Assembly (NCBI GenBank): GCA_963833225.1
Contig: CAWHXD010000019.1
Span: 640,001-704,000 of the forward strand
Reading direction: 5' to 3'
Length of the DNA: 64,000 nucleotides
From: an uncultured Chloroflexia bacterium
GTDB taxonomy: Bacteria; Chloroflexota; Limnocylindria; Limnocylindrales; CSP1-4
Shown here: one piece after another, positions 3,827 through 11,276 of the stretch
How positions within the stretch are numbered: the stretch's first letter is position 1
Layout of the letters: each line of letters opens with the position of its first letter
Notes under the pieces: generated by a model
The model's database searches: none
The model's input: only the letters and a program-made list of their open reading frames with translations
Told to the model about the DNA's origin: nothing
Made by a program: the position numbers and the translations under genes

Positions 3827-4561
3827 TCAGTCGGCCTCTCCGATCTCGTAGGCCATCAGCCGGCGGACGGCCACGGCCAGGGCGATGGCGAAGACCACGA
3901 CCGAGAGGGCGATCGCCACGCCTCCGGCCAGCAGCTCCCCGGCGGCAGCCCGGGAACCGCCCGCGGTCGCGTCCGCGATGGACAGCGCGTACTGGCGGAT
4001 GGAGAAGGTCCGGGTCCCCGCGAACAGGCCGGCCAGAAAGCCTTCCCATGCGAGGACGTAGATGAGCCCGATCGCGAGCGCCCTGGACGTCACCAGGCTG
4101 AGCGCCAGGAAGATCGTCACGTAGAGCACCGCCGCGACGGCCGCCCCGAGCCCATAGCCGGCCGCCGTGGCCAGCCCGGTGCCCCCGGCTGCGAGGATCG
4201 CCCCGGCGATGACGGCGGCGGGCGCGGTGACCACCACGGCCAGCCCGGCCGCCGCGGCCGTCTTGGCGGCGACGATCCGCCACCGCGCGATCGGCTTGGT
4301 GATCAGGTAGATGGCCGTTCCATCGTCGAGCTCCGAGCCGAGAGCGGCCGTCCCGAAGACGAGCGAGACGAGCGGGACGAGGGTCGAGATGACCAGGCGG
4401 TCCATGATCGTGTCGGTGACTTCGGTGATCCCCGACTCCTGCCCCGACAGCCGGACGAGCAGCGCGATCAGGATCGGCAGCGCTCCCAGCAGCGACACGA
4501 GCAGGCTCCGCCGCCGCCCGGTCAGGGCACGCACGGTCAGCGCGGCGATCAGCCGGATCAC
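3827..4561 (-). CDS. ABC-2 type transporter permease
   Basis: About 6 TM helices and an ELDDGTAIYLITKPIARWRIVAAK motif; operonic overlap with the ATPase gene. Confidence 0.85.
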   Translation of the reverse strand: MIRLIAALTVRALTGRRRSLLVSLLGALPILIALLVRLSGQESGITEVTDTIMDRLVISTLVPLVSLVFGTAALGSELDDGTAIYLITKPIARWRIVAAKTAAAAGLAVVVTAPAAVIAGAILAAGGTGLATAAGYGLGAAVAAVLYVTIFLALSLVTSRALAIGLIYVLAWEGFLAGLFAGTRTFSIRQYALSIADATAGGSRAAAGELLAGGVAIALSVVVFAIALAVAVRRLMAYEIGEAD

Positions 4562-5539
4562 CGGCGCACCAGGTAGCCAAAGACGCTCTCGAGATCCTCG
4601 TCCGTCGGCTGGACCTCGAGCAGCGTGATGCCGGCATCACGGGCGATGACCGCCAGGGAGCGCGCAAACGCCAGGTAGTCGGAGGTGCGCACGGACAGCC
4701 TGCCCTCGCCAAGCTCGACCCCGAAGACCGCCGGGTGGCCGACGAGCCCCGCCGCCAGGTGGCGGTCGTCCGACGAGTGGATGGTGAACGTGTGCGGGCG
4801 GTCGGTCATCAGCCGCCGGATCTCGCGGAAGTCGCCCGATGCCGCCAGGCGCCCGGAGACGATCACCAGGACGTTCTGGGCGAGCCGCTCGACCTCCTCG
4901 AGGATGTGCGAGCTGAACAGGATCGTGCGCCCCTCGCCGGCCATCCGACGCAGGAGATCCATCATGTGCAGGCGCTGGCGCGGATCCATGCCGTTGAACG
5001 GCTCGTCGAGCAGGAGGATCGACGGCTCGTGGACGAGGGCTCCCGCGATCTTCACCCGCTGGCGCATCCCCTTGGAGTAGGTCCCGATCGTGCGACCGGC
5101 GGCATCAGCCGAGCTCGACCGTCGCGACCGCACGGTCGGCCGCCGCCTCAGGGTCGGGCAATCCCTGGAGCCGGGCGTTGAGCAGGGCGAAGTCGCGCCC
5201 GGTCAGGAACGGGTAGACCGCCTCCCGCTCGGGAACCAGCCCGACGCGCCGGTAGATCGCCGGGTCGCGCCAGGCCGGCCGGCCGGTGATCGCAACCTGT
5301 CCGGCCGATGGCCTGAGCAGGCCGGCGATGAGGTGGAGGAGGGTGGACTTGCCCGCCCCGTTCGGGCCGAGCAGTCCGGTGACCCCCGGCCGCAGGGTGA
5401 ACGAGATGTCGTTGACCGCGACCACGTTGCCGTACCAGCGCGAGACCACCTGGAGCTCCACGGCGGCGGTGGGATCGAGCGGGCGTGGCGGAGCCGCAGG
5501 CACGCCCCAGCCGGCCAGTCGCGGGTCGCCGGCCGTCAT
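4558..5539 (-). CDS. ABC transporter ATP-binding protein, frameshift near 5108
   Basis: Walker A GPNGAGKST (tail of ORF 5105..6421) joins the signature YSKGMRQR, LLLDEP and SSH of ORF 4558..5133. ATG at 5539 overlaps the upstream TGA. Confidence 0.85.
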
Positions 5540-6421
5540 GCCTCGATCCTCCGGTACCGCCAGACGAGGCCGAGCGCGGCGACGGCAGCAACGACCAGCG
5601 CTCCGATGGCCAGCGCGGCGGTGGGGATGGACGACGCTCAGAGCGGCCTCGGCGCTCGGCCGGACGCCGAAGAACCAGGCGTTGACTCCGTCGAGCAGGG
5701 ACCCGATGTCGATCATGATGATCCAGTCGGACAGCCGCCCCGGGTCGATGGCGATGACGATGGCCGCGATGATCCCGGGGATGATGAACACGCCGAAGAT
5801 CGCCGCGGTCGCGTAGGCGCGACGCGGCGTGAACGAGGCGGCCAGGAGGGCCACGGCGGCGAGGGTGACCGCGATGACCACCGATGAGCCGAGGACCGGG
5901 GGCAGGGTGGCGGCCTCCGTTCGGAGCGCCGTGACGATGTCCGGATCGAGCAGGATGGTCCCGGCGCCGAGCAGGAGGTGGGGGACGAGCAGGATCGTCA
6001 GGGTCCCGATGCTCATGGCTGCGAGCTTGGCCAGCGCATAGTCGGTGCGGCGCAGCGCCCGCGAGAAGTACAGGGTGAGGACCCGGTAGCGCTGGTCACG
6101 ACCGAGCAGCTCCGGCGCCTGGGCCGCGACGAACAGGAGCGGGAACACCGAGACCGCCGCATACAGCCCGTCATGCCCGGGGATGCCCGGGACGTCGCCG
6201 AGGTCGACCTGGGCCGCGAGGGCGCGGACCCCGACGAGGATCAGGGCGATCAGCGCCGGAAACCCCACGCAGACGACCGGCAGGATCTTCGCCCGGCCGT
6301 TCCGGCCGATGCCGAAGACGCTCCGGGCCGAGTGCCGGACCAGGGTCGAGACGGCGTGGCGGCGGCCGAGGCGCGGGCCGTCGTAGCCGCGATAGCCGAG
6401 GTCGTAGATGCTGCCGCTCAC
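5536..6421 (-). CDS. ABC-2 type transporter permease, frameshift near 5635
   Basis: GSIYDLGYRGYDGPRLGR start and DQRYRVLTLYFSRAL motif. The last helix (IPTAALAIGALVVAAVAALGLVWRYRRIEA*) is in a shifted frame ending at TGA 5536. Confidence 0.8.
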
Positions 6422-7419
6422 GATGCGGCTCCACCGGGTGTCGTCGCCGGATCGACGGCCGCCTCGTCGCCGCGGTCCTGGTCGCGGAAGAGGTCCTCGA
6501 GGCTGTGCCGGCTGCGCGTGATCCGGACCAGCGGCAAACCCAGGTCCACGACGGCATCGCGGATCAGGTCGTACGGCGCGGTGTCGCCGAGGGCGATGCG
6601 GACCTCCCGGTCCTCGCCGATCCCCGCGCGAGCCAGCACCCGGAGGCCGCGCTCACCGAGCCGGGTCGCCAGGGCGTCACGCCCCTCCTCGACCTCGACG
6701 CTGAGCACGCCGGTCTCGGTCGTGAACTCCGCCAGGGGTGCGGCCCGGAGCAGTCGACCGGCGTCGATCGCCACCAGGTAGTCACACACCGCCTCGATCT
6801 CGCCGAGCAGGTGGCTGGCCAGGATGATCGCGATCCCGAACTCGTGGCCGGTCCGGCTGATGAGCTCGAGCATCTCGTCGCGGCCGGCCGGATCCAGGCC
6901 GTTGGTGGGCTCGTCGAGCAGCAGTAGGCGCGGGTCATGGACGAGGGCCTGGGCGAGCTGGACCCGCTGGCGCATCCCGGTGGAGTAGCCGCCGATGGGC
7001 CGGTAGCGCTCCTCGTACAGGCCGACGTGTCGGAGGACGTCGGACGTCCGCTCCCGGGCAGCCGCCCGCGGCAGGCCGGATAGCTGGCCCAGGTGGGCGA
7101 CCAGCTCGGTTGCGCTGATGTCGGGCGGCAGCGCGTTGTGCTCGGGCATGTAGCCCACCCAGCGGCGGAGCTCGGTTCCGTGGGTGGTCGGATCGATGCC
7201 CAGGACGGCGACGCGGCCGCTGCTTGGCGCCAGGAGCCCGAGCAGGATCCTGATCAGGGTCGACTTGCCGGCCCCGTTCGCGCCCACGAGCCCCACGATC
7301 CCAGGGGAAAGCTCGAGCGTCAGGGCGTCCAGCGCGGTCACGCTCGTGAACCGCTTCGTCAGCGACTCGACGCGGACGATCGGGGCGCCGTCACCAGGAG
7401 CCGTCCGGTGGGCTGTCAC
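6418..7419 (-). CDS. ABC transporter ATP-binding protein
   Basis: GANGAGKST, YSTGMRQR, LLLDEPTNGLD. GTG 7419 lies 6 nt after a TACCAT -10 hexamer (leaderless). Confidence 0.9.
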   Translation of the reverse strand: MTAHRTAPGDGAPIVRVESLTKRFTSVTALDALTLELSPGIVGLVGANGAGKSTLIRILLGLLAPSSGRVAVLGIDPTTHGTELRRWVGYMPEHNALPPDISATELVAHLGQLSGLPRAAARERTSDVLRHVGLYEERYRPIGGYSTGMRQRVQLAQALVHDPRLLLLDEPTNGLDPAGRDEMLELISRTGHEFGIAIILASHLLGEIEAVCDYLVAIDAGRLLRAAPLAEFTTETGVLSVEVEEGRDALATRLGERGLRVLARAGIGEDREVRIALGDTAPYDLIRDAVVDLGLPLVRITRSRHSLEDLFRDQDRGDEAAVDPATTPGGAAS

Positions 7420-7460
7420 CGGGCGATGGTACTGGGCGCCAAGCGCACGCTGCCCGGCGG

Positions 7461-9512
7461 TCAGCCGGCCGTGGGTGGTCGGGTGCTCGAGGTGCGGCGC
7501 CGTTCGCCGCGCCGTCGCTCCACGCCTCCGGGTGGCGGCGCGACGCTGCTTGTCCGCCGGTCCGCCCTTCGGCGCTCGCCGCCGGCGGGCAGCTGGGGCA
7601 CGGATGTGGCCGTCGCTGCGGCCGGCTTGGCGGCCACGGTCGCCGCAGCCGGCTTGGCGGCCACGGCCGCGGCGCGCGGTGCGGACCCGCCGACCTCGGC
7701 GATCACGCCCAGCGAGATCCGGAAGCCGGCTCGTCGCTGCTGGGGCGGCATCATCGTTCCCTGGCCGACCGGCGCGTCGCCCGGGAACCATTTGACCCAC
7801 TCCTCGTTGAAGGCATCGAACTCGGCCGGGTCACGCAGCGACCAGTTCGCCCACGCGATCCGCTCGAGCGACGAGCCCTTCGCCTCCAGGAGGCGATTGA
7901 GGTTCTCCAGGCACTGGGTGGCCTGCGCGGCGATGGACTCCCCGGCGATGTGCCCGGTCTCGGGGTTCACCGGGCCGACGGAGGACACGTACACCATGCC
8001 GCCGGCCTCCACGGCGTGCCCCAGCCCGATCTTGAGCCGGGGTGCAAGCTCGCCCGACTGCTCGATGCCGATGGACCGTCCCTTGCCAAGCCGGATCTTC
8101 ACCGGGTGTTCGGCATCCTCCGCCGGGATCCCGAAGTCCCCCTCCGGCAGCTCGATCCCGGACGCCTGGAACTTGGGCATGAACGTGGGTCGCTCGCCGG
8201 TCGGCTGGAGCGTGCCCACGATCTTGCCGTGCTCATCGACACCGGTCTGCTTGAACTCGAAGATGTCCTGGGTGAGGATCTGGTCATCCTCGATCCCGTA
8301 GACCTCGGTGATGTTGATGATCTTGCGCGAGCCGTCGCCGAGACGGGCGGTGTGCACGATGAGGTCCACCGCGGACGCGATCTGCTCCCGGATCGAGCGC
8401 AGCGGCATCTCGTAGCCGGCCATCAGGATCATGGTCTCGAGGCGGCGGAGCATGTCCGGCGAGCTGTTGGCGTGGCCCGTCGAGAGGGACCCTTCCTGGC
8501 CCACGGTCATCGCCTGGATCATGTCCAGGGCCTCGCCGCCACGGCACTCGCCGACGATGATCCGGTCCGGGCGCATGTGGAGCGCGTTGCGGAGGAGGTC
8601 GCGGGTCGTGATCTCGCCCAGGCCCTCGAGGTTGGGCGGGCGGGCCTCGAGGGTCACGACGTGCTCTTGGCGGAGCTGGAGCTCAGCCGCGTCCTCGATG
8701 GTGATGATCCGTTCCTCCTCGGGGACGAAGGCCGAGATCACGTTGAGGGTCGTCGTCTTGCCGGAGCCCGTGCCGCCCGAGACGAAGATGTTGAGACGGG
8801 CCTCGACACAGGCGCGCAGGAAGTCGAACATCTCGGCGCTCGCGGTGCCAAACCCGACCAGGTCCTCGACCGTGTACGGGCGCTGCGAGAACTTCCGGAT
8901 CGTGATCACGGGCCCGATGAGGGACAGGGGCTCGATGATGCAGTTGACGCGCGATCCGTCCGGGAGGCGGGCGTCGACGCGCGGGCTGGTCTGGTCGATG
9001 CGGCGCCCAAGCGGCGTGATGATGCGGTCGATGATCCGGAGGACGTGGTCGTCGTTGAGGAACGACATCGGGACGCGCGAGATCTTGCCGGCGCGCTCGA
9101 TGTAGATGTGGTCCGGTCCATTGACCATGATCTCGGTGATCGTCGGGTCGGCGATCAGCGGCTCGAGCGGGCCCAGGCCGCTGACCTCGGCGATGACCTC
9201 CTCGGCGAGGCGATTGCGCTCGCCGCGCGTGACCGCGAGCCCGTTGGCCACGATGAACCGCTCCAGGATCGCATCCACGGCCGTCCGGAGGTCGGAGGTC
9301 TTGGAGGCCTCGAACAGCGCATGCGACGACCCGACGACCTCGTCCTGGAGGCGACGACGGACCTCGCGAAGCCACTCCTCGCGGGCGGCGTAGTTCGCGG
9401 GCGCGCCAATCGGCACGGTGGCCACCGCGCTCGTGGCGGGCTTGGCCTCCGCGCTCCCAGGTGCATCCGTTGCGGCCTGCTGGGCGCGCTCGATTCGCGA
9501 GGTGAGGGACAT
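7461..9512 (-). CDS. TadA/CpaF-family secretion ATPase fused to a C-terminal Rid (YjgF/YER057c/UK114)-like domain
   Basis: GLGPLEPL...EIMVNG, SPRVDARLPDGSR, Walker A GGTGSGKTT, TIEDAAEL, MRPDRIIVGECRGGEA, TGHANS. Then AVEAGGMVYVSSVGPVNPETG...QATQCLENL...FDAFNEEWVKWFPG...ISLGVIAE (Rid fold). ATG 9512 has a GGGGAG SD. Confidence 0.9.
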   Translation of the reverse strand: MSLTSRIERAQQAATDAPGSAEAKPATSAVATVPIGAPANYAAREEWLREVRRRLQDEVVGSSHALFEASKTSDLRTAVDAILERFIVANGLAVTRGERNRLAEEVIAEVSGLGPLEPLIADPTITEIMVNGPDHIYIERAGKISRVPMSFLNDDHVLRIIDRIITPLGRRIDQTSPRVDARLPDGSRVNCIIEPLSLIGPVITIRKFSQRPYTVEDLVGFGTASAEMFDFLRACVEARLNIFVSGGTGSGKTTTLNVISAFVPEEERIITIEDAAELQLRQEHVVTLEARPPNLEGLGEITTRDLLRNALHMRPDRIIVGECRGGEALDMIQAMTVGQEGSLSTGHANSSPDMLRRLETMILMAGYEMPLRSIREQIASAVDLIVHTARLGDGSRKIINITEVYGIEDDQILTQDIFEFKQTGVDEHGKIVGTLQPTGERPTFMPKFQASGIELPEGDFGIPAEDAEHPVKIRLGKGRSIGIEQSGELAPRLKIGLGHAVEAGGMVYVSSVGPVNPETGHIAGESIAAQATQCLENLNRLLEAKGSSLERIAWANWSLRDPAEFDAFNEEWVKWFPGDAPVGQGTMMPPQQRRAGFRISLGVIAEVGGSAPRAAAVAAKPAAATVAAKPAAATATSVPQLPAGGERRRADRRTSSVAPPPGGVERRRGERRRTSSTRPPTAG

Positions 9513-9646
9513 GGACGACTCCCCGGGCGCGGCCATCCCCGTGCGGCCGCGTTGCGCAAGATCCTACGCGCGGACCGCGGTATCGGGAAGGCCCTCCTCG
9601 CGGTGAGGCGCGGCTGGGCGGTGTCCGCGGTCACCGGGGGCCATCG

Positions 9647-9675
9647 TTGACGGGGCAACCACTGGAGGCTAGGCT
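9647..9675 (+). promoter_or_regulatory. Sigma70-type promoter TTGACG-N17-TAGGCT
   Basis: -35 at 9647-9652, 17-nt spacer, -10 at 9670-9675, and ATG 6 nt downstream. Confidence 0.75.
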
Positions 9676-9681
9676 TCGCGC

Positions 9682-9777
9682 ATGGTTGAGGTCGCCCTCG
9701 CGGGCTGTACGGGTCAGCGGTGCTCCTGTCGTCGGCGAGCGCCGGCGACGGTCGAGCGTGCGGCAGCGTTGAGCTGA
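9682..9777 (+). CDS. Putative leaderless Cys-containing leader peptide MVEVALAGCTGQRCSCRRRAPATVERAAALS
   Basis: ATG at the predicted transcription start; 3 Cys codons; overlaps alternative hairpins; precedes DUF4395. Confidence 0.55.
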   Translation: MVEVALAGCTGQRCSCRRRAPATVERAAALS

Positions 9778-9886
9778 CCCGCACCGGCTGACCGCTCCGG
9801 GCCTCGCCCCCTCCCCGTCGCCCCGCGCTCCGTCGCGTCTCCTCGCGCACGGCGCGCCCGTCCCGTTCGACCCGGAGTCCTTCCTC

Positions 9887-10408
9887 GTGTCCCTGTCCCT
9901 GTCCCTGATCCTCACCCCCACCCCTGCGCGGTCCATCGACCCCCGCGGCCAACGGTTCGGCGCCGCCGCGTCGGTCGTGGTCCTTGCCCTCGCATTCGCG
10001 CTCGGCCAGTCCTGGCTCGCTGCCCTGGTCGGGCTCAACCTGCTGGTTGCGGCGGCGTTCGGCACGCGATGGTTCGTCCCCGGCCGCGCCTGGCCGCTCA
10101 TCCGCCGGGCGGTGCGGCTGGGACCGGCCGAGCCCGAGCACGAGTACCCGCCACGCTTTGCCCAGGCGCTCGGCGGCACGTTCCTGGCGCTGGCCACGGC
10201 AGCCTTCCTGCTCGGTGCCACTCCTCTCGGGTGGGTCCTCGCCGGCGCCGTCGCCGGCCTCCAGGCCCTGCTGGCCGTCACCGGGATCTGCGTCGGATGC
10301 CGCCTCTATTTCCTGCGCTGGTGGGCACCCTCACTGGTCGCGCGGCTCTTCCGGCGAGCCGATGGCCTGCCGCCGCTCGACGTCCCCGCCCTCAACCGGA
10401 TCGGATAG
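9887..10408 (+). CDS. DUF4395 family membrane protein
   Basis: IDPRGQRFGA, EHEYPPRFAQALG and GICVGCRLY motifs typical of DUF4395; GGAG SD. Confidence 0.85.
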   Translation: MSLSLSLILTPTPARSIDPRGQRFGAAASVVVLALAFALGQSWLAALVGLNLLVAAAFGTRWFVPGRAWPLIRRAVRLGPAEPEHEYPPRFAQALGGTFLALATAAFLLGATPLGWVLAGAVAGLQALLAVTGICVGCRLYFLRWWAPSLVARLFRRADGLPPLDVPALNRIG

Positions 10409-10418
10409 GGCCCCCGAG

Positions 10419-11276
10419 TCACGGCGCCTCGAGCCCGTGACGCTCCAGCAGCTCCGCGTCCGCGAGGAGCCGGTCTGTCGCCCCGTCGGCCACGATCTGG
10501 CCGTCGTCCACGACCACGGTCCGCGGGAACACCTCGGCGACGAGGCGCATGTCGTGCGTCGAGACGAGCGTCGTCTGGTCGAGGCCACGGAGCAGCGTGA
10601 TGAGCTCCCGGCGGCCACGTGGATCGAGCCCGGCCGATGGCTCGTCGAACACGAGGATCGAGGGGCTCATCGACAGCACCGTGGCGAGGGCCACCCGCTT
10701 GCGCTGTCCAAGCGACATGCGATGGGGGACCCGGTGGGCGAAGGCCGCCATCCCCACCGCGGCCAGCGCCCGCTCCACCCGGCGATGGACCTCATCGGCC
10801 GCCATCCCCATGTGGAGCGGTCCGAACGCCACGTCGTCGAACACGGTCGGGCTGAACAGCTGGTCATCGGGGTCCTGGAACACGAGGCCCACCTCGGCCC
10901 GCACGCGGCGAATGGTCTCCCGGGTCACCGGCAGCCCGGCGACGCGGACCGATCCGTGAGCGGGCCGGAGCGTGCCGTTGAGCTGGAGCATCAGCGTGCT
11001 CTTGCCGGCGCCGTTGGGACCGACCAGGGCCACCTTCTCGCCGCTCCCGATGTGGAGGTCGACCCCCCGCAGGGCCTCGAACCCGTCCGGGTAGCGGAAG
11101 TGGACATGTTCGAGGTCCACCCGGCCACGCTCGTCGGCGGGCGCGGTGCCGTCCGGCTGCGGCTCGCCCGGCGCATGGAGGTGGGGATGCGCGTGCGGCG
11201 GCGCGCCCTCGTGGACGTGAACGTGGACGTGGTCGTGCTCCAGCTCGGGCACGCCACCTTGGTCGAGGGTCGTCAC
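10419..11276 (-). CDS. cbiO: ECF transporter ATPase (CbiO/NikO) with a His-rich N-terminal extension
   Basis: GPNGAGKST, LVFQDPDDQLF, SLGQRKR, DEPSAGLD. GTG 11276 overlaps the cbiQ stop. Confidence 0.9.
   Translation of the reverse strand: MTTLDQGGVPELEHDHVHVHVHEGAPPHAHPHLHAPGEPQPDGTAPADERGRVDLEHVHFRYPDGFEALRGVDLHIGSGEKVALVGPNGAGKSTLMLQLNGTLRPAHGSVRVAGLPVTRETIRRVRAEVGLVFQDPDDQLFSPTVFDDVAFGPLHMGMAADEVHRRVERALAAVGMAAFAHRVPHRMSLGQRKRVALATVLSMSPSILVFDEPSAGLDPRGRRELITLLRGLDQTTLVSTHDMRLVAEVFPRTVVVDDGQIVADGATDRLLADAELLERHGLEAP

Follow-up and report, generated by a model that had tools for sequence, protein, structure and literature searches.

A conserved fusion of a CpaF-type pilus ATPase and a Rid domain in Limnocylindria, with changes at the arginine finger and the C-terminal face

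What can a bacterium gain by joining the motor ATPase of the Tad pilus to a domain of the Rid (YjgF/L-PSP) fold, and by encoding the product away from the tad genes? The question is raised by one open frame in a 64,000-nucleotide stretch of contig CAWHXD010000019.1 (hereafter the window; positions 640,001 to 704,000, assembly GCA_963833225.1, an uncultured Chloroflexia bacterium), whose product we call CpaF-Rid. A first, sequence-only reading of this DNA had proposed an accessory Tad motor with a complete ATPase, gated by a small molecule. Here, we find that the fusion is genuine and conserved, not an artefact, and that CpaF-Rid is an accessory paralogue of the Tad motor ATPase CpaF. What appears to be new, as judged from sequence, is that in Rid-fused CpaF proteins the arginine finger is replaced and residues of the His box and of the C-terminal face are lost. 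CpaF-Rid probably regulates a pilus motor and does not drive a pilus alone. The reading that we favour, and to which we would give an even chance, is that of a Rid-capped, attenuated Tad ATPase paralogue that works in a single orientation and modulates the canonical motor. The parts of the gene on which the argument depends are the following.

7461..9536, minus strand: complete open frame for the fusion protein CpaF-Rid (691 amino acids, counted from the first ATG)
7461-7463, minus strand: TGA stop codon of the gene
9512, minus strand: probable true start at M9, giving 683 amino acids; relatives begin MSL..., and the sequence-only reading ended the gene at this coordinate
9183..9512, minus strand: variable N-terminus and CpaF-like helical bundle (residues 9-118; helices 46-119 in the AlphaFold 2 (AF2) model, and alignment)
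8127..9182, minus strand: CpaF-type ATPase core (residues 119-470) with N-terminal domain, catalytic domain and C-terminal motif
8343-9182, minus strand: extent of Pfam T2SSE inside the ATPase core
8751..8774, minus strand: Walker A GTGSGKTT (K260), invariant in 214/214 tips of the tree described below
8577..8579, minus strand: His320, aligned to R347 of Caulobacter crescentus CpaF, which is the inter-chain arginine finger
8496..8498, minus strand: Gln347, aligned to C. crescentus H374, the first histidine of the His box
8457..8459, minus strand: Pro360, at the position of C. crescentus R387, a retraction-face residue at the N-terminus of helix alpha11
8286..8288, minus strand: Asp417 in a hairpin turn (EGD to EDD), at the position of C. 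crescentus G444
8040..8126, minus strand: conserved linker (residues 471-499), with D474, R482, G484, K485, G486 and R487 near-invariant
7692..8039, minus strand: Rid (YjgF/L-PSP) fold domain (residues 500-615; Pfam, AF2, Foldseek, translation)
7764-7766, minus strand: Gly591, which replaces the catalytic Arg of Rid (alignment to solved RidA)
7608..7691, minus strand: Ala/Pro-rich disordered spacer (AF2; repeat search)
7464..7607, minus strand: basic tail module, predicted disordered (AF2, translation)
7554-7577, minus strand: ERRRADRR, within the tail segment VPQLPAGG-ERRRADRR (translation)
7494-7520, minus strand: ERRRGERRR, within the tail segment PPGGV-ERRRGERRR (translation)

Residues are numbered in the 691-amino-acid frame. 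Because the alignment with the solved C. crescentus CpaF is gap-free across the core, the C. crescentus number is the number given here plus 27. Both halves of the protein are recognised by Pfam above cut-off, as the sequence-only reading had expected: T2SSE (PF00437) covers residues 119-398 with 207.9 bits (cut-off 24.9) and Ribonuc_L-PSP (PF01042) residues 507-589 with 51.6 bits (cut-off 27.3). The best NCBIfam model, the TadA-family ATPase TIGR03819, stays under its cut-off (311.7 against 373.15 bits), and the NCBIfam RidA model TIGR00004 is far under its own (48.6 against 106.25 bits). The Rid domain, first placed at 7694-8030, is found by translation at 7692-8039, and repeat search and translation recover at sequence level the VAAKPAAAT repeat and the two tail motifs that had also been read from the letters. 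The repeat is encoded by a 27-bp tandem duplication (7612-7674; 2.3 copies, 86% matches) in the Ala/Pro spacer, which differs in length and sequence in every relative.

The architecture recurs well beyond this one genome. Amongst the 120 best database relatives, drawn from NCBI, ENA, JGI and Logan assemblies, 117 have both PF00437 and PF01042, and most are about 600 amino acids long; their database names are either "pilus assembly protein CpaF" or "RidA family protein". A genome search using one genome per species gives 102 stretches that encode a relative, of which 80 were kept. In 47 of the 80 kept loci the match extends at least to residue 600, and all 47 come from metagenome-assembled genomes (MAGs) labelled Limnocylindrales, Chloroflexota or Chloroflexia; the unfused relatives, in which the match ends at about residue 468, are from other phyla. 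We also conducted a census of 401 genomes of the class, in which a full match to a linker and Rid query is one with query start <= 9 and E at most 1e-34. Counted by hand, there are full matches in 83 of the 138 genomes of the window's own family and in none of the 263 genomes from the other four families, and four genomes have two copies. The carriers are uncultured Chloroflexota of soil and fresh water. A weak Rid-only match is seen in one of the 263 (G087). The Rid matches found in long frames of the other families were discarded as candidates: three are ordinary stand-alone RidA proteins (PARS/PARA), three are stand-alone Rid proteins with the sequence PPARQGA, and 0/6 are fused.

The sequence-only reading had left room for two separate genes joined by an indel, a possibility that disagrees with how widespread the in-frame fusion is. 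A search for shorter proteins returns 442 hits; the 10 that we examined are all fused-type pieces with a P-x-G-Q loop, most of them starting within the ATPase or the linker and three at the Rid boundary. Because of the fused-type loop, and because most starts lie inside the ATPase or the linker, these ten appear to be fragments or broken calls of the fused gene and not separate genes. Within the family, pairwise identity is 0.875 for the catalytic domain, 0.67 for Rid and 0.50 for the linker, and purifying selection acts on all domains of CpaF-Rid. In some relatives the fused gene is broken by a frameshift or a single stop (loci L008, L039, L043, L051 and others); several of the interrupted copies come from long-read MAGs, for which sequencing error and real decay are not distinguishable. 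A listing of sequencing runs for the window's DNA includes no RNA run and 19 DNA runs, each with a small share (0.19 or less). A full-text literature search found no paper that treats CpaF, TadA or the pilus together with RidA, YjgF or L-PSP, and a search on Limnocylindria and pili found general Tad papers only, so that within the papers searched the architecture is undescribed, as had been surmised.

How much of a motor is left in CpaF-Rid? We address this with a maximum-likelihood tree of the ATPase core with 214 tips, of which 158 are fused, 28 are canonical CpaF, 2 are unfused orphan paralogues, and 26 come from other phyla. The description of the ATPase as complete stands in part: the nucleotide-binding residues are intact, and CpaF-Rid has K260 of Walker A, E281, D282 and E285 of the Asp box, E330 of Walker B and, in the His box, the second histidine (H355). 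Together with T261 and the retained N-terminal arginine fingers R190 and R196 with D188, these residues are kept in 214/214 tips. The description does not stand at two other positions, where CpaF-Rid has His320 for the arginine finger and Gln347 in the His box. In all, 27 alignment columns are fixed differently in fused and canonical proteins, and four of them have known roles. The R347-equivalent is His in 158/158 fused tips and Arg in 56/56 unfused tips, and the H374-equivalent is Gln in 141/158 fused tips and His in 56/56 unfused tips. The genome's own PilB and its canonical CpaF have Arg at the finger position. According to a cryo-electron microscopy study (PMC12019362), R347 is an arginine finger extended from one chain to the gamma-phosphate of the ATP in its neighbour, its equivalents are conserved in all type IV filament (PilT/VirB11-like) ATPases, and mutating the PilT equivalent has been found, in work cited there, to abolish twitching. 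With the arginine finger and one His-box histidine replaced across the family, the proposal of a fully competent motor becomes doubtful. The relationship to CpaF itself is close: against the solved C. crescentus CpaF, phmmer gives an E of 5e-115, and against 8rjf_A, Foldseek gives an E of 3.4e-36 with a TMt of 0.70 for the ATPase core, in an AF2 model that is weak at residues 277-354.

Two more of the four columns lie on the C-terminal face. Tad pili are thought to extend and retract with one ATPase. In a preprint (10.64898/2026.02.24.707734), the Tad motor is proposed to switch direction by flipping over, such that CpaF retracts pili by docking its C-terminal face on the platform. Three regions are described there as decaying in extension-only orthologues: the N-terminal end of helix alpha11 (P386/R387), the turn between beta13 and beta14, and the C-terminal motif. 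The preprint also reports that C. crescentus CpaF with either R387A or a C-terminal mCherry fusion extends pili that are not retracted. The R387-equivalent is Arg in 6/158 fused tips and in 56/56 unfused tips. The G444-equivalent, at the turn of a long hairpin (residues 404-433), is Asp or Glu in 158/158 fused tips and Gly in 54/56 unfused tips. CpaF-Rid combines natural forms of both retraction-blocking changes, the loss of R387 and the C-terminal fusion. The earliest-branching fused tip already has His320 and Asp417, yet it retains the His-box histidine and the R387-type Arg; therefore the fusion, the finger change and the turn change came first.

The added domain has the Rid fold and has itself lost its catalytic residue. 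Residues 500-615 are modelled by AF2 at a predicted local distance difference test (pLDDT) of 91-98, and Foldseek aligns them to Arabidopsis RidA (5hp7) with a TMt of 0.89 and a root-mean-square deviation of 1.6 A over 110 columns. By sequence alone, the best E against solved Rid proteins is 6.6e-13 (PDB phmmer). Together with the Pfam match above cut-off, this answers the doubt whether the C-terminal domain matches and folds as Rid. The catalytic Arg of 5hp7 and of TTHA0137 (2csl), which is Arg105 in E. coli TdcF, aligns to Gly591 in APVGQG, in agreement with what had been read from the sequence. A P-x-G-Q loop is present in the window and in all 43 fused loci where the loop was found; in 3 loci the pattern was not found. 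Niehaus et al. 2015 (PMC4433059) describe the catalytic Arg as the residue that binds the carboxylate of the substrate and without which imine hydrolysis is almost abolished, and they predict that the subfamilies Rid4 to Rid7, in which this Arg is missing, are not imine deaminases. Several residues are near-invariant in the fused Rid domains (Y516, Q538, N545, E579, W580, Q592, R601, R602, R606), and amongst these R601, R602 and R606 are invariant in fused Rid and absent from the closest stand-alone relatives. Those relatives, found in the same class (L087, L088, L089, L093, L094), are 44-48% identical, share the sequence NEEWxRWFP, and retain the Arg, in the sequence PPARQGA. It is from their lineage that the fused Rid domain probably derives. 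Because these stand-alone proteins retain the Arg, its absence from the fused domain appears to be secondary, which suggests that it was lost within the fused lineage. With near-invariant residues of its own and a within-family identity of 0.67, the Rid domain is thus maintained for a function other than RidA chemistry.

Rid trimers have been solved many times over. When three copies of residues 495-620 are modelled together they form a trimer with an ipSAE of 0.87, compared to 0.00 for the best control, a result that may simply reflect the solved Rid trimers known to the model; the mark used is reached by 20/30 solved one-chain pairs and by 1/23 single chains. The trimer runs agree in at least 84% of their contacts, with partner pLDDT of at least 85, and the conserved loop at residues 589-599 sits in the predicted interface. 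The homotrimer put forward by the sequence-only reading is thus predicted by the model, and with so many solved trimers the prediction shows likeness and is not proof.

There are four T2SSE ATPases in the genome: a PilB-like and a PilT-like protein on one contig (C5), a 472-amino-acid CpaF on another (C14), and CpaF-Rid. The CpaF on C14 belongs to a canonical Tad locus, which supports the claim that CpaF-Rid is an accessory ATPase.

About 7486-17945 of L085 (G000 C14:86001-106000): canonical Tad locus, in the order CpaB (RcpC/SAF), CpaE (REC+ParA, with an N-terminal receiver domain), CpaF, TadB, TadC

One flank of this locus encodes HisKA_3 kinases and a LuxR-type response regulator, and the other a helix-turn-helix protein, a ComF-like phosphoribosyltransferase and a hibernation factor. 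The T2SSF platform domain has four matches in the genome, which is 86% complete, and they are solely PilC and TadB/TadC; this search found no extra platform gene for CpaF-Rid. Because the canonical cpaB-cpaE-cpaF-tadB-tadC locus is on another contig and there is no extra platform gene, we assign CpaF-Rid accessory status. CpaF-Rid shares 60% identity with the canonical CpaF over 473 residues, and the C-terminal end of the latter coincides with the start of the CpaF-Rid linker. Within the window's own family, 39 of 41 genomes (about one per genus) have the canonical CpaF, with 79-94% identity where the gene is whole, and 19 of the 41 have a fused-type second copy with 62-73% identity in open frames of at least 545 amino acids. 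Eighteen of these 19 genomes also show the canonical copy, the exception being a genome that is 73% complete. In the tree, rooted on the other phyla, the 158 fused tips are monophyletic (support 0.93) and sister to the canonical clade. The N-termini of TadB and TadC, inspected for acidic patches, gave nothing useful.

A related genome has a second, unfused orphan paralogue of CpaF (L130, G209 C135:8600-12600, at 986-2413) of 475 amino acids, 68% identical to the canonical copy. Its Walker A is altered (GSASGKT), and its arginine finger, His box and R387-type Arg are all retained; it adjoins a gene for an adenylate-cyclase-like/ATPase regulator. Another contig of this genome (L094) encodes a stand-alone Rid with PPARQGA.

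The favoured reading brings these results together in the following way. CpaF-Rid, permanently fused to Rid through the conserved linker, would be a lineage-specific paralogue that arose by duplication of the canonical cpaF of Limnocylindria; this origin is part of the reading and shares its even chance. The C-terminal (retraction) face of the hexamer would be remodelled and covered by two predicted Rid trimers. Because that face is remodelled and covered, the N-terminal (extension) face would be the only one by which the hexamer could dock on the shared TadB/TadC platform. Without the arginine finger, ATP turnover would be slow or conditional. CpaF-Rid would then act as a single-orientation attenuated motor or as a brake, in competition with canonical CpaF, and the competition would change how extension and retraction of the pilus are balanced. 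The cap formed by Rid would be an oligomeric clamp and perhaps a ligand sensor. The tail with two ERRRxxRR motifs, which is found in one subclade only, would be a disordered basic docking motif.

Several points weigh against this reading. Since His320 does not vary and no part of the protein is better conserved than the catalytic domain, the enzyme may be fully active, with the His or R322 serving as the finger. The six fused tips that keep the R387-type Arg include the earliest-branching one. The inversion model comes from an unreviewed preprint (10.64898/2026.02.24.707734) that depends on AlphaFold 3 models and C. crescentus mutants. We infer the platform contact, the hexamer and the placement of Rid on the C-terminal face; similarly, the identification of the hairpin 404-433 as beta13-beta14 is one that we infer from the order of strands in the AF2 model, and this model has a pLDDT below 50 for residues 277-354. 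Finally, some fused tips of the tree are the same gene, entered once as a protein cluster and once as a locus, and the relatives are not independent of one another.

How does CpaF-Rid compare to known systems? The bifunctional Tad motor CpaF/TadA of C. crescentus (PDB 8RJF, 8RKD, 9E24) has the same domain order up to residue 470, and shares Walker A and B, the Asp box and the N-terminal arginine fingers. Unlike CpaF/TadA, CpaF-Rid has a C-terminal linker, a Rid domain and a tail, His at the finger, Gln for the first His-box histidine, and neither the R387 nor the G444 equivalent; it is also encoded away from the tad genes, and falls under the TIGR03819 cut-off. Parallels are also offered by the engineered C. 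crescentus CpaF-mCherry and R387A proteins, which CpaF-Rid resembles in having a bulky C-terminal domain and a loss of the R387 type. Unlike them, it is natural, conserved, found beside an intact canonical motor, and known here from sequence; its added domain is predicted to be an oligomerising Rid fold, and its active site is changed as well. Type IVa PilB, PilT and the accessory PilU are paralogous hexameric ATPases that divide the work on one platform. CpaF-Rid is like them in being one of several paralogous ATPases, and its genome also has PilB, PilC and a PilT-like gene; it differs in that PilB, PilT and PilU keep the arginine finger and both His-box histidines (which we checked in the genome's own PilB) and have no Rid. 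Like Rid4 to Rid7, as described in PMC4433059, the Rid of CpaF-Rid is without the Arg of imine hydrolysis, and unlike them it is nearest to stand-alone Rid proteins that keep this Arg and is part of a motor ATPase.

These comparisons indicate why the protein matters. A bacterial lineage keeps a second copy of a Tad motor in which the "retraction" face is altered and presumably covered by Rid, the arginine finger has become His, and the Rid domain is without its enzyme residue. CpaF-Rid is a natural experiment on how a motor chooses its direction, on whether an arginine finger can be dispensed with, and on what non-catalytic Rid domains are for.

The tail bears on the first of the alternatives. 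Residues 621-691 are predicted to be disordered by AF2. Of 121 fused proteins, 113 are recognised by pattern; 89 of the 113 terminate within 10 residues of the end of Rid, 15 have two ERR(R/K/Q/H)xxRR motifs, and 4 have one. Where present, the tail has a constant layout: a variable Ala/Pro spacer, (V/I)PxLPxG, motif 1, 10-14 residues leading to a Pro/Gly-rich end, and motif 2. In the tree, tail-bearing tips are 23/49 and patchy, all within one 49-tip subclade (support 0.67); since the tail is confined to this subclade and patchy in it, it is a later addition with repeated losses. Searches for the tail module on other proteins came back empty, with one partial exception given below. In a six-frame pattern scan of the window's own genome the motif pair occurs in the CpaF-Rid gene only, and the 37 single motif hits are mostly in off-frame Arg-rich open reading frames (ORFs). 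Searching the 48-amino-acid tail against 141 genomes of the family gave weak hits alone (E 4e-4 to 0.01), with no similar module in the 11 loci that were read; a database search with the tail region returned CpaF-Rid itself and P0010 and nothing else, and residues 471-691 gave no usable hit in the ESM Atlas. Candidate partners of the tail are c-di-GMP (cyclic di-GMP), RNA, and an acidic protein surface. The partial exception is a similar tail, DRERREVDRRQASRR...ERRRGDRRTDRRR (DRRxxxRR...ERRRGDRR), at the C-terminus of an 88-amino-acid zinc-ribbon ORF in the same genome (G000 C17:104262-104528; L099 1762-2028, minus strand), which has the pattern CxxC...CxxC and weak Pfam zinc-ribbon hits and lies between a TrpB-like and a prephenate dehydrogenase-like gene.

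The sequence-only reading took CpaF-Rid to be a fully active accessory Tad motor, gated by a metabolite in the Rid cleft and/or by c-di-GMP bound to an RxxxR motif of the tail, an explanation that we consider unlikely. It agrees with the accessory status (a canonical tad locus elsewhere and no extra platform), with the position of the conserved 589-599 loop inside the predicted Rid trimer interface, and with the many invariant residues of Rid, R601, R602 and R606 included. In the 15 of 113 proteins that have both motifs (4 more have one copy) the pair is conserved across a spacer that varies, and each motif contains RRxxxR, which in an Arg-rich tail is a low-information match. The PilZ signature consists of RRxxxR and (D/N)xSxxG on a beta-barrel. 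The tail shares RRxxxR with the PilZ c-di-GMP receptors and differs from them in the rest: Pfam at E up to 10 and inspection of the tail find no PilZ barrel, no (D/N)xSxxG second motif and no match of the tail to PilZ or to any other Pfam family, and the tail is predicted disordered. A permissive Rfam scan of 7000-10500 has 0 matches, hence no c-di-GMP riboswitch or other Rfam match near the gene. A module present in 23 of the 49 tips of one subclade cannot explain the whole family, and the replacement of the arginine finger and of one His-box histidine makes full activity doubtful.

The neighbourhood of the gene leads to another alternative, in which the hexameric ATPase has been recruited to a role outside the pilus, such as the transporter next to it, or DNA or RNA handling through the tail, which presumably resembles the arginine-rich RNA-binding peptides. 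On the 3' side of CpaF-Rid, and on the same strand, there is an ABC-2 transporter whose first gene begins about 42 bp past the stop; on the 5' side there is DUF4395, and then CbiM/PDGLE/CbiQ/ABC (CbiMNQO). The observation that no tad gene is adjacent holds, the neighbours being ABC, DUF4395 and Cbi genes. A scan of 7200-10000 finds 0 promoters and 0 terminators, so no terminator is predicted between CpaF-Rid and the ABC transporter genes. The gene is solitary with changing neighbours, and its active site and C-terminal face are derived, all of which a role elsewhere would accommodate. In an all-against-all comparison of the ORFs of 51 fused loci, however, there is no conserved neighbour: only the CpaF-Rid gene and its antisense shadow are present in 51/51, and the commonest neighbour cluster occurs in 12/51, so that ABC neighbours recur in at most 12 of the 51 loci. 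CpaF-Rid has stayed near canonical CpaF in its N-terminal domain and where it aligns to the C. crescentus pore loop, and in the tree the sister of the fused clade is the lineage's own canonical Tad ATPase. We find a role outside the pilus quite unlikely.

In the downstream ABC-2 transporter, the gene for the second ABC ATPase is divided between two frames (window 4558-6421, minus strand). Positions 1-91 of the ABC_tran profile close the ORF 5108-6421, positions 101-137 open the ORF 4561-5133, and the two overlap at about 5105-5133; the cause is either a frameshift or an assembly indel. The frame 5108-6421 also fuses a permease-like N-terminal part to the start of the ATPase.

CpaF-Rid may instead act as a poison or regulatory subunit that enters mixed hexamers with canonical CpaF, where the His "finger" and the Rid cap would slow or bias the rotary cycle. 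The 60% identity to the canonical copy over packing surfaces would permit such hexamers, the finger acts in trans on the neighbouring chain (as described in PMC12019362), and 18 of the 19 genomes with a fused copy also have the canonical one. We doubt this explanation strongly: trimerisation of Rid, as predicted by the model, would favour threes of like subunits, and amongst the fused loci there is no synteny with cpaF.

More improbable still is that Rid controls catalysis. A clutch would be run by R482/R487 of the linker (RxGKGR) or by a protonated His, its position being set by the Rid trimers, and in the subclade it would also need a ligand of ERRRxxRR, e.g. c-di-GMP; extension-only occupancy of the platform would then decide whether pili go out or back. 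If true, such a Rid-controlled clutch would be a natural test of the ATPase-inversion model.

That the fusion is an assembly or indel artefact, or a decaying pseudogene that joins two genes, is already contradicted and almost certainly wrong: the source is a MAG, the nearby ABC ATPase gene looks frameshifted, and some relatives' copies are broken or called as a short "RidA", but 117 of the 120 best relatives, which come from several sources, have the fusion in frame, as do 47 loci, the linker is conserved, 10/10 examined short hits have the fused-type PxGQ loop, and purifying selection extends over all domains.

Three long relatives, P0003 and P0004 (about 1150 amino acids) and P0040 (919 amino acids), are 54-55% identical across about 57-64% of the query. 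With many P-loop Pfam hits and no Rid domain, they may be other fused or tandem CpaF-like ATPases.

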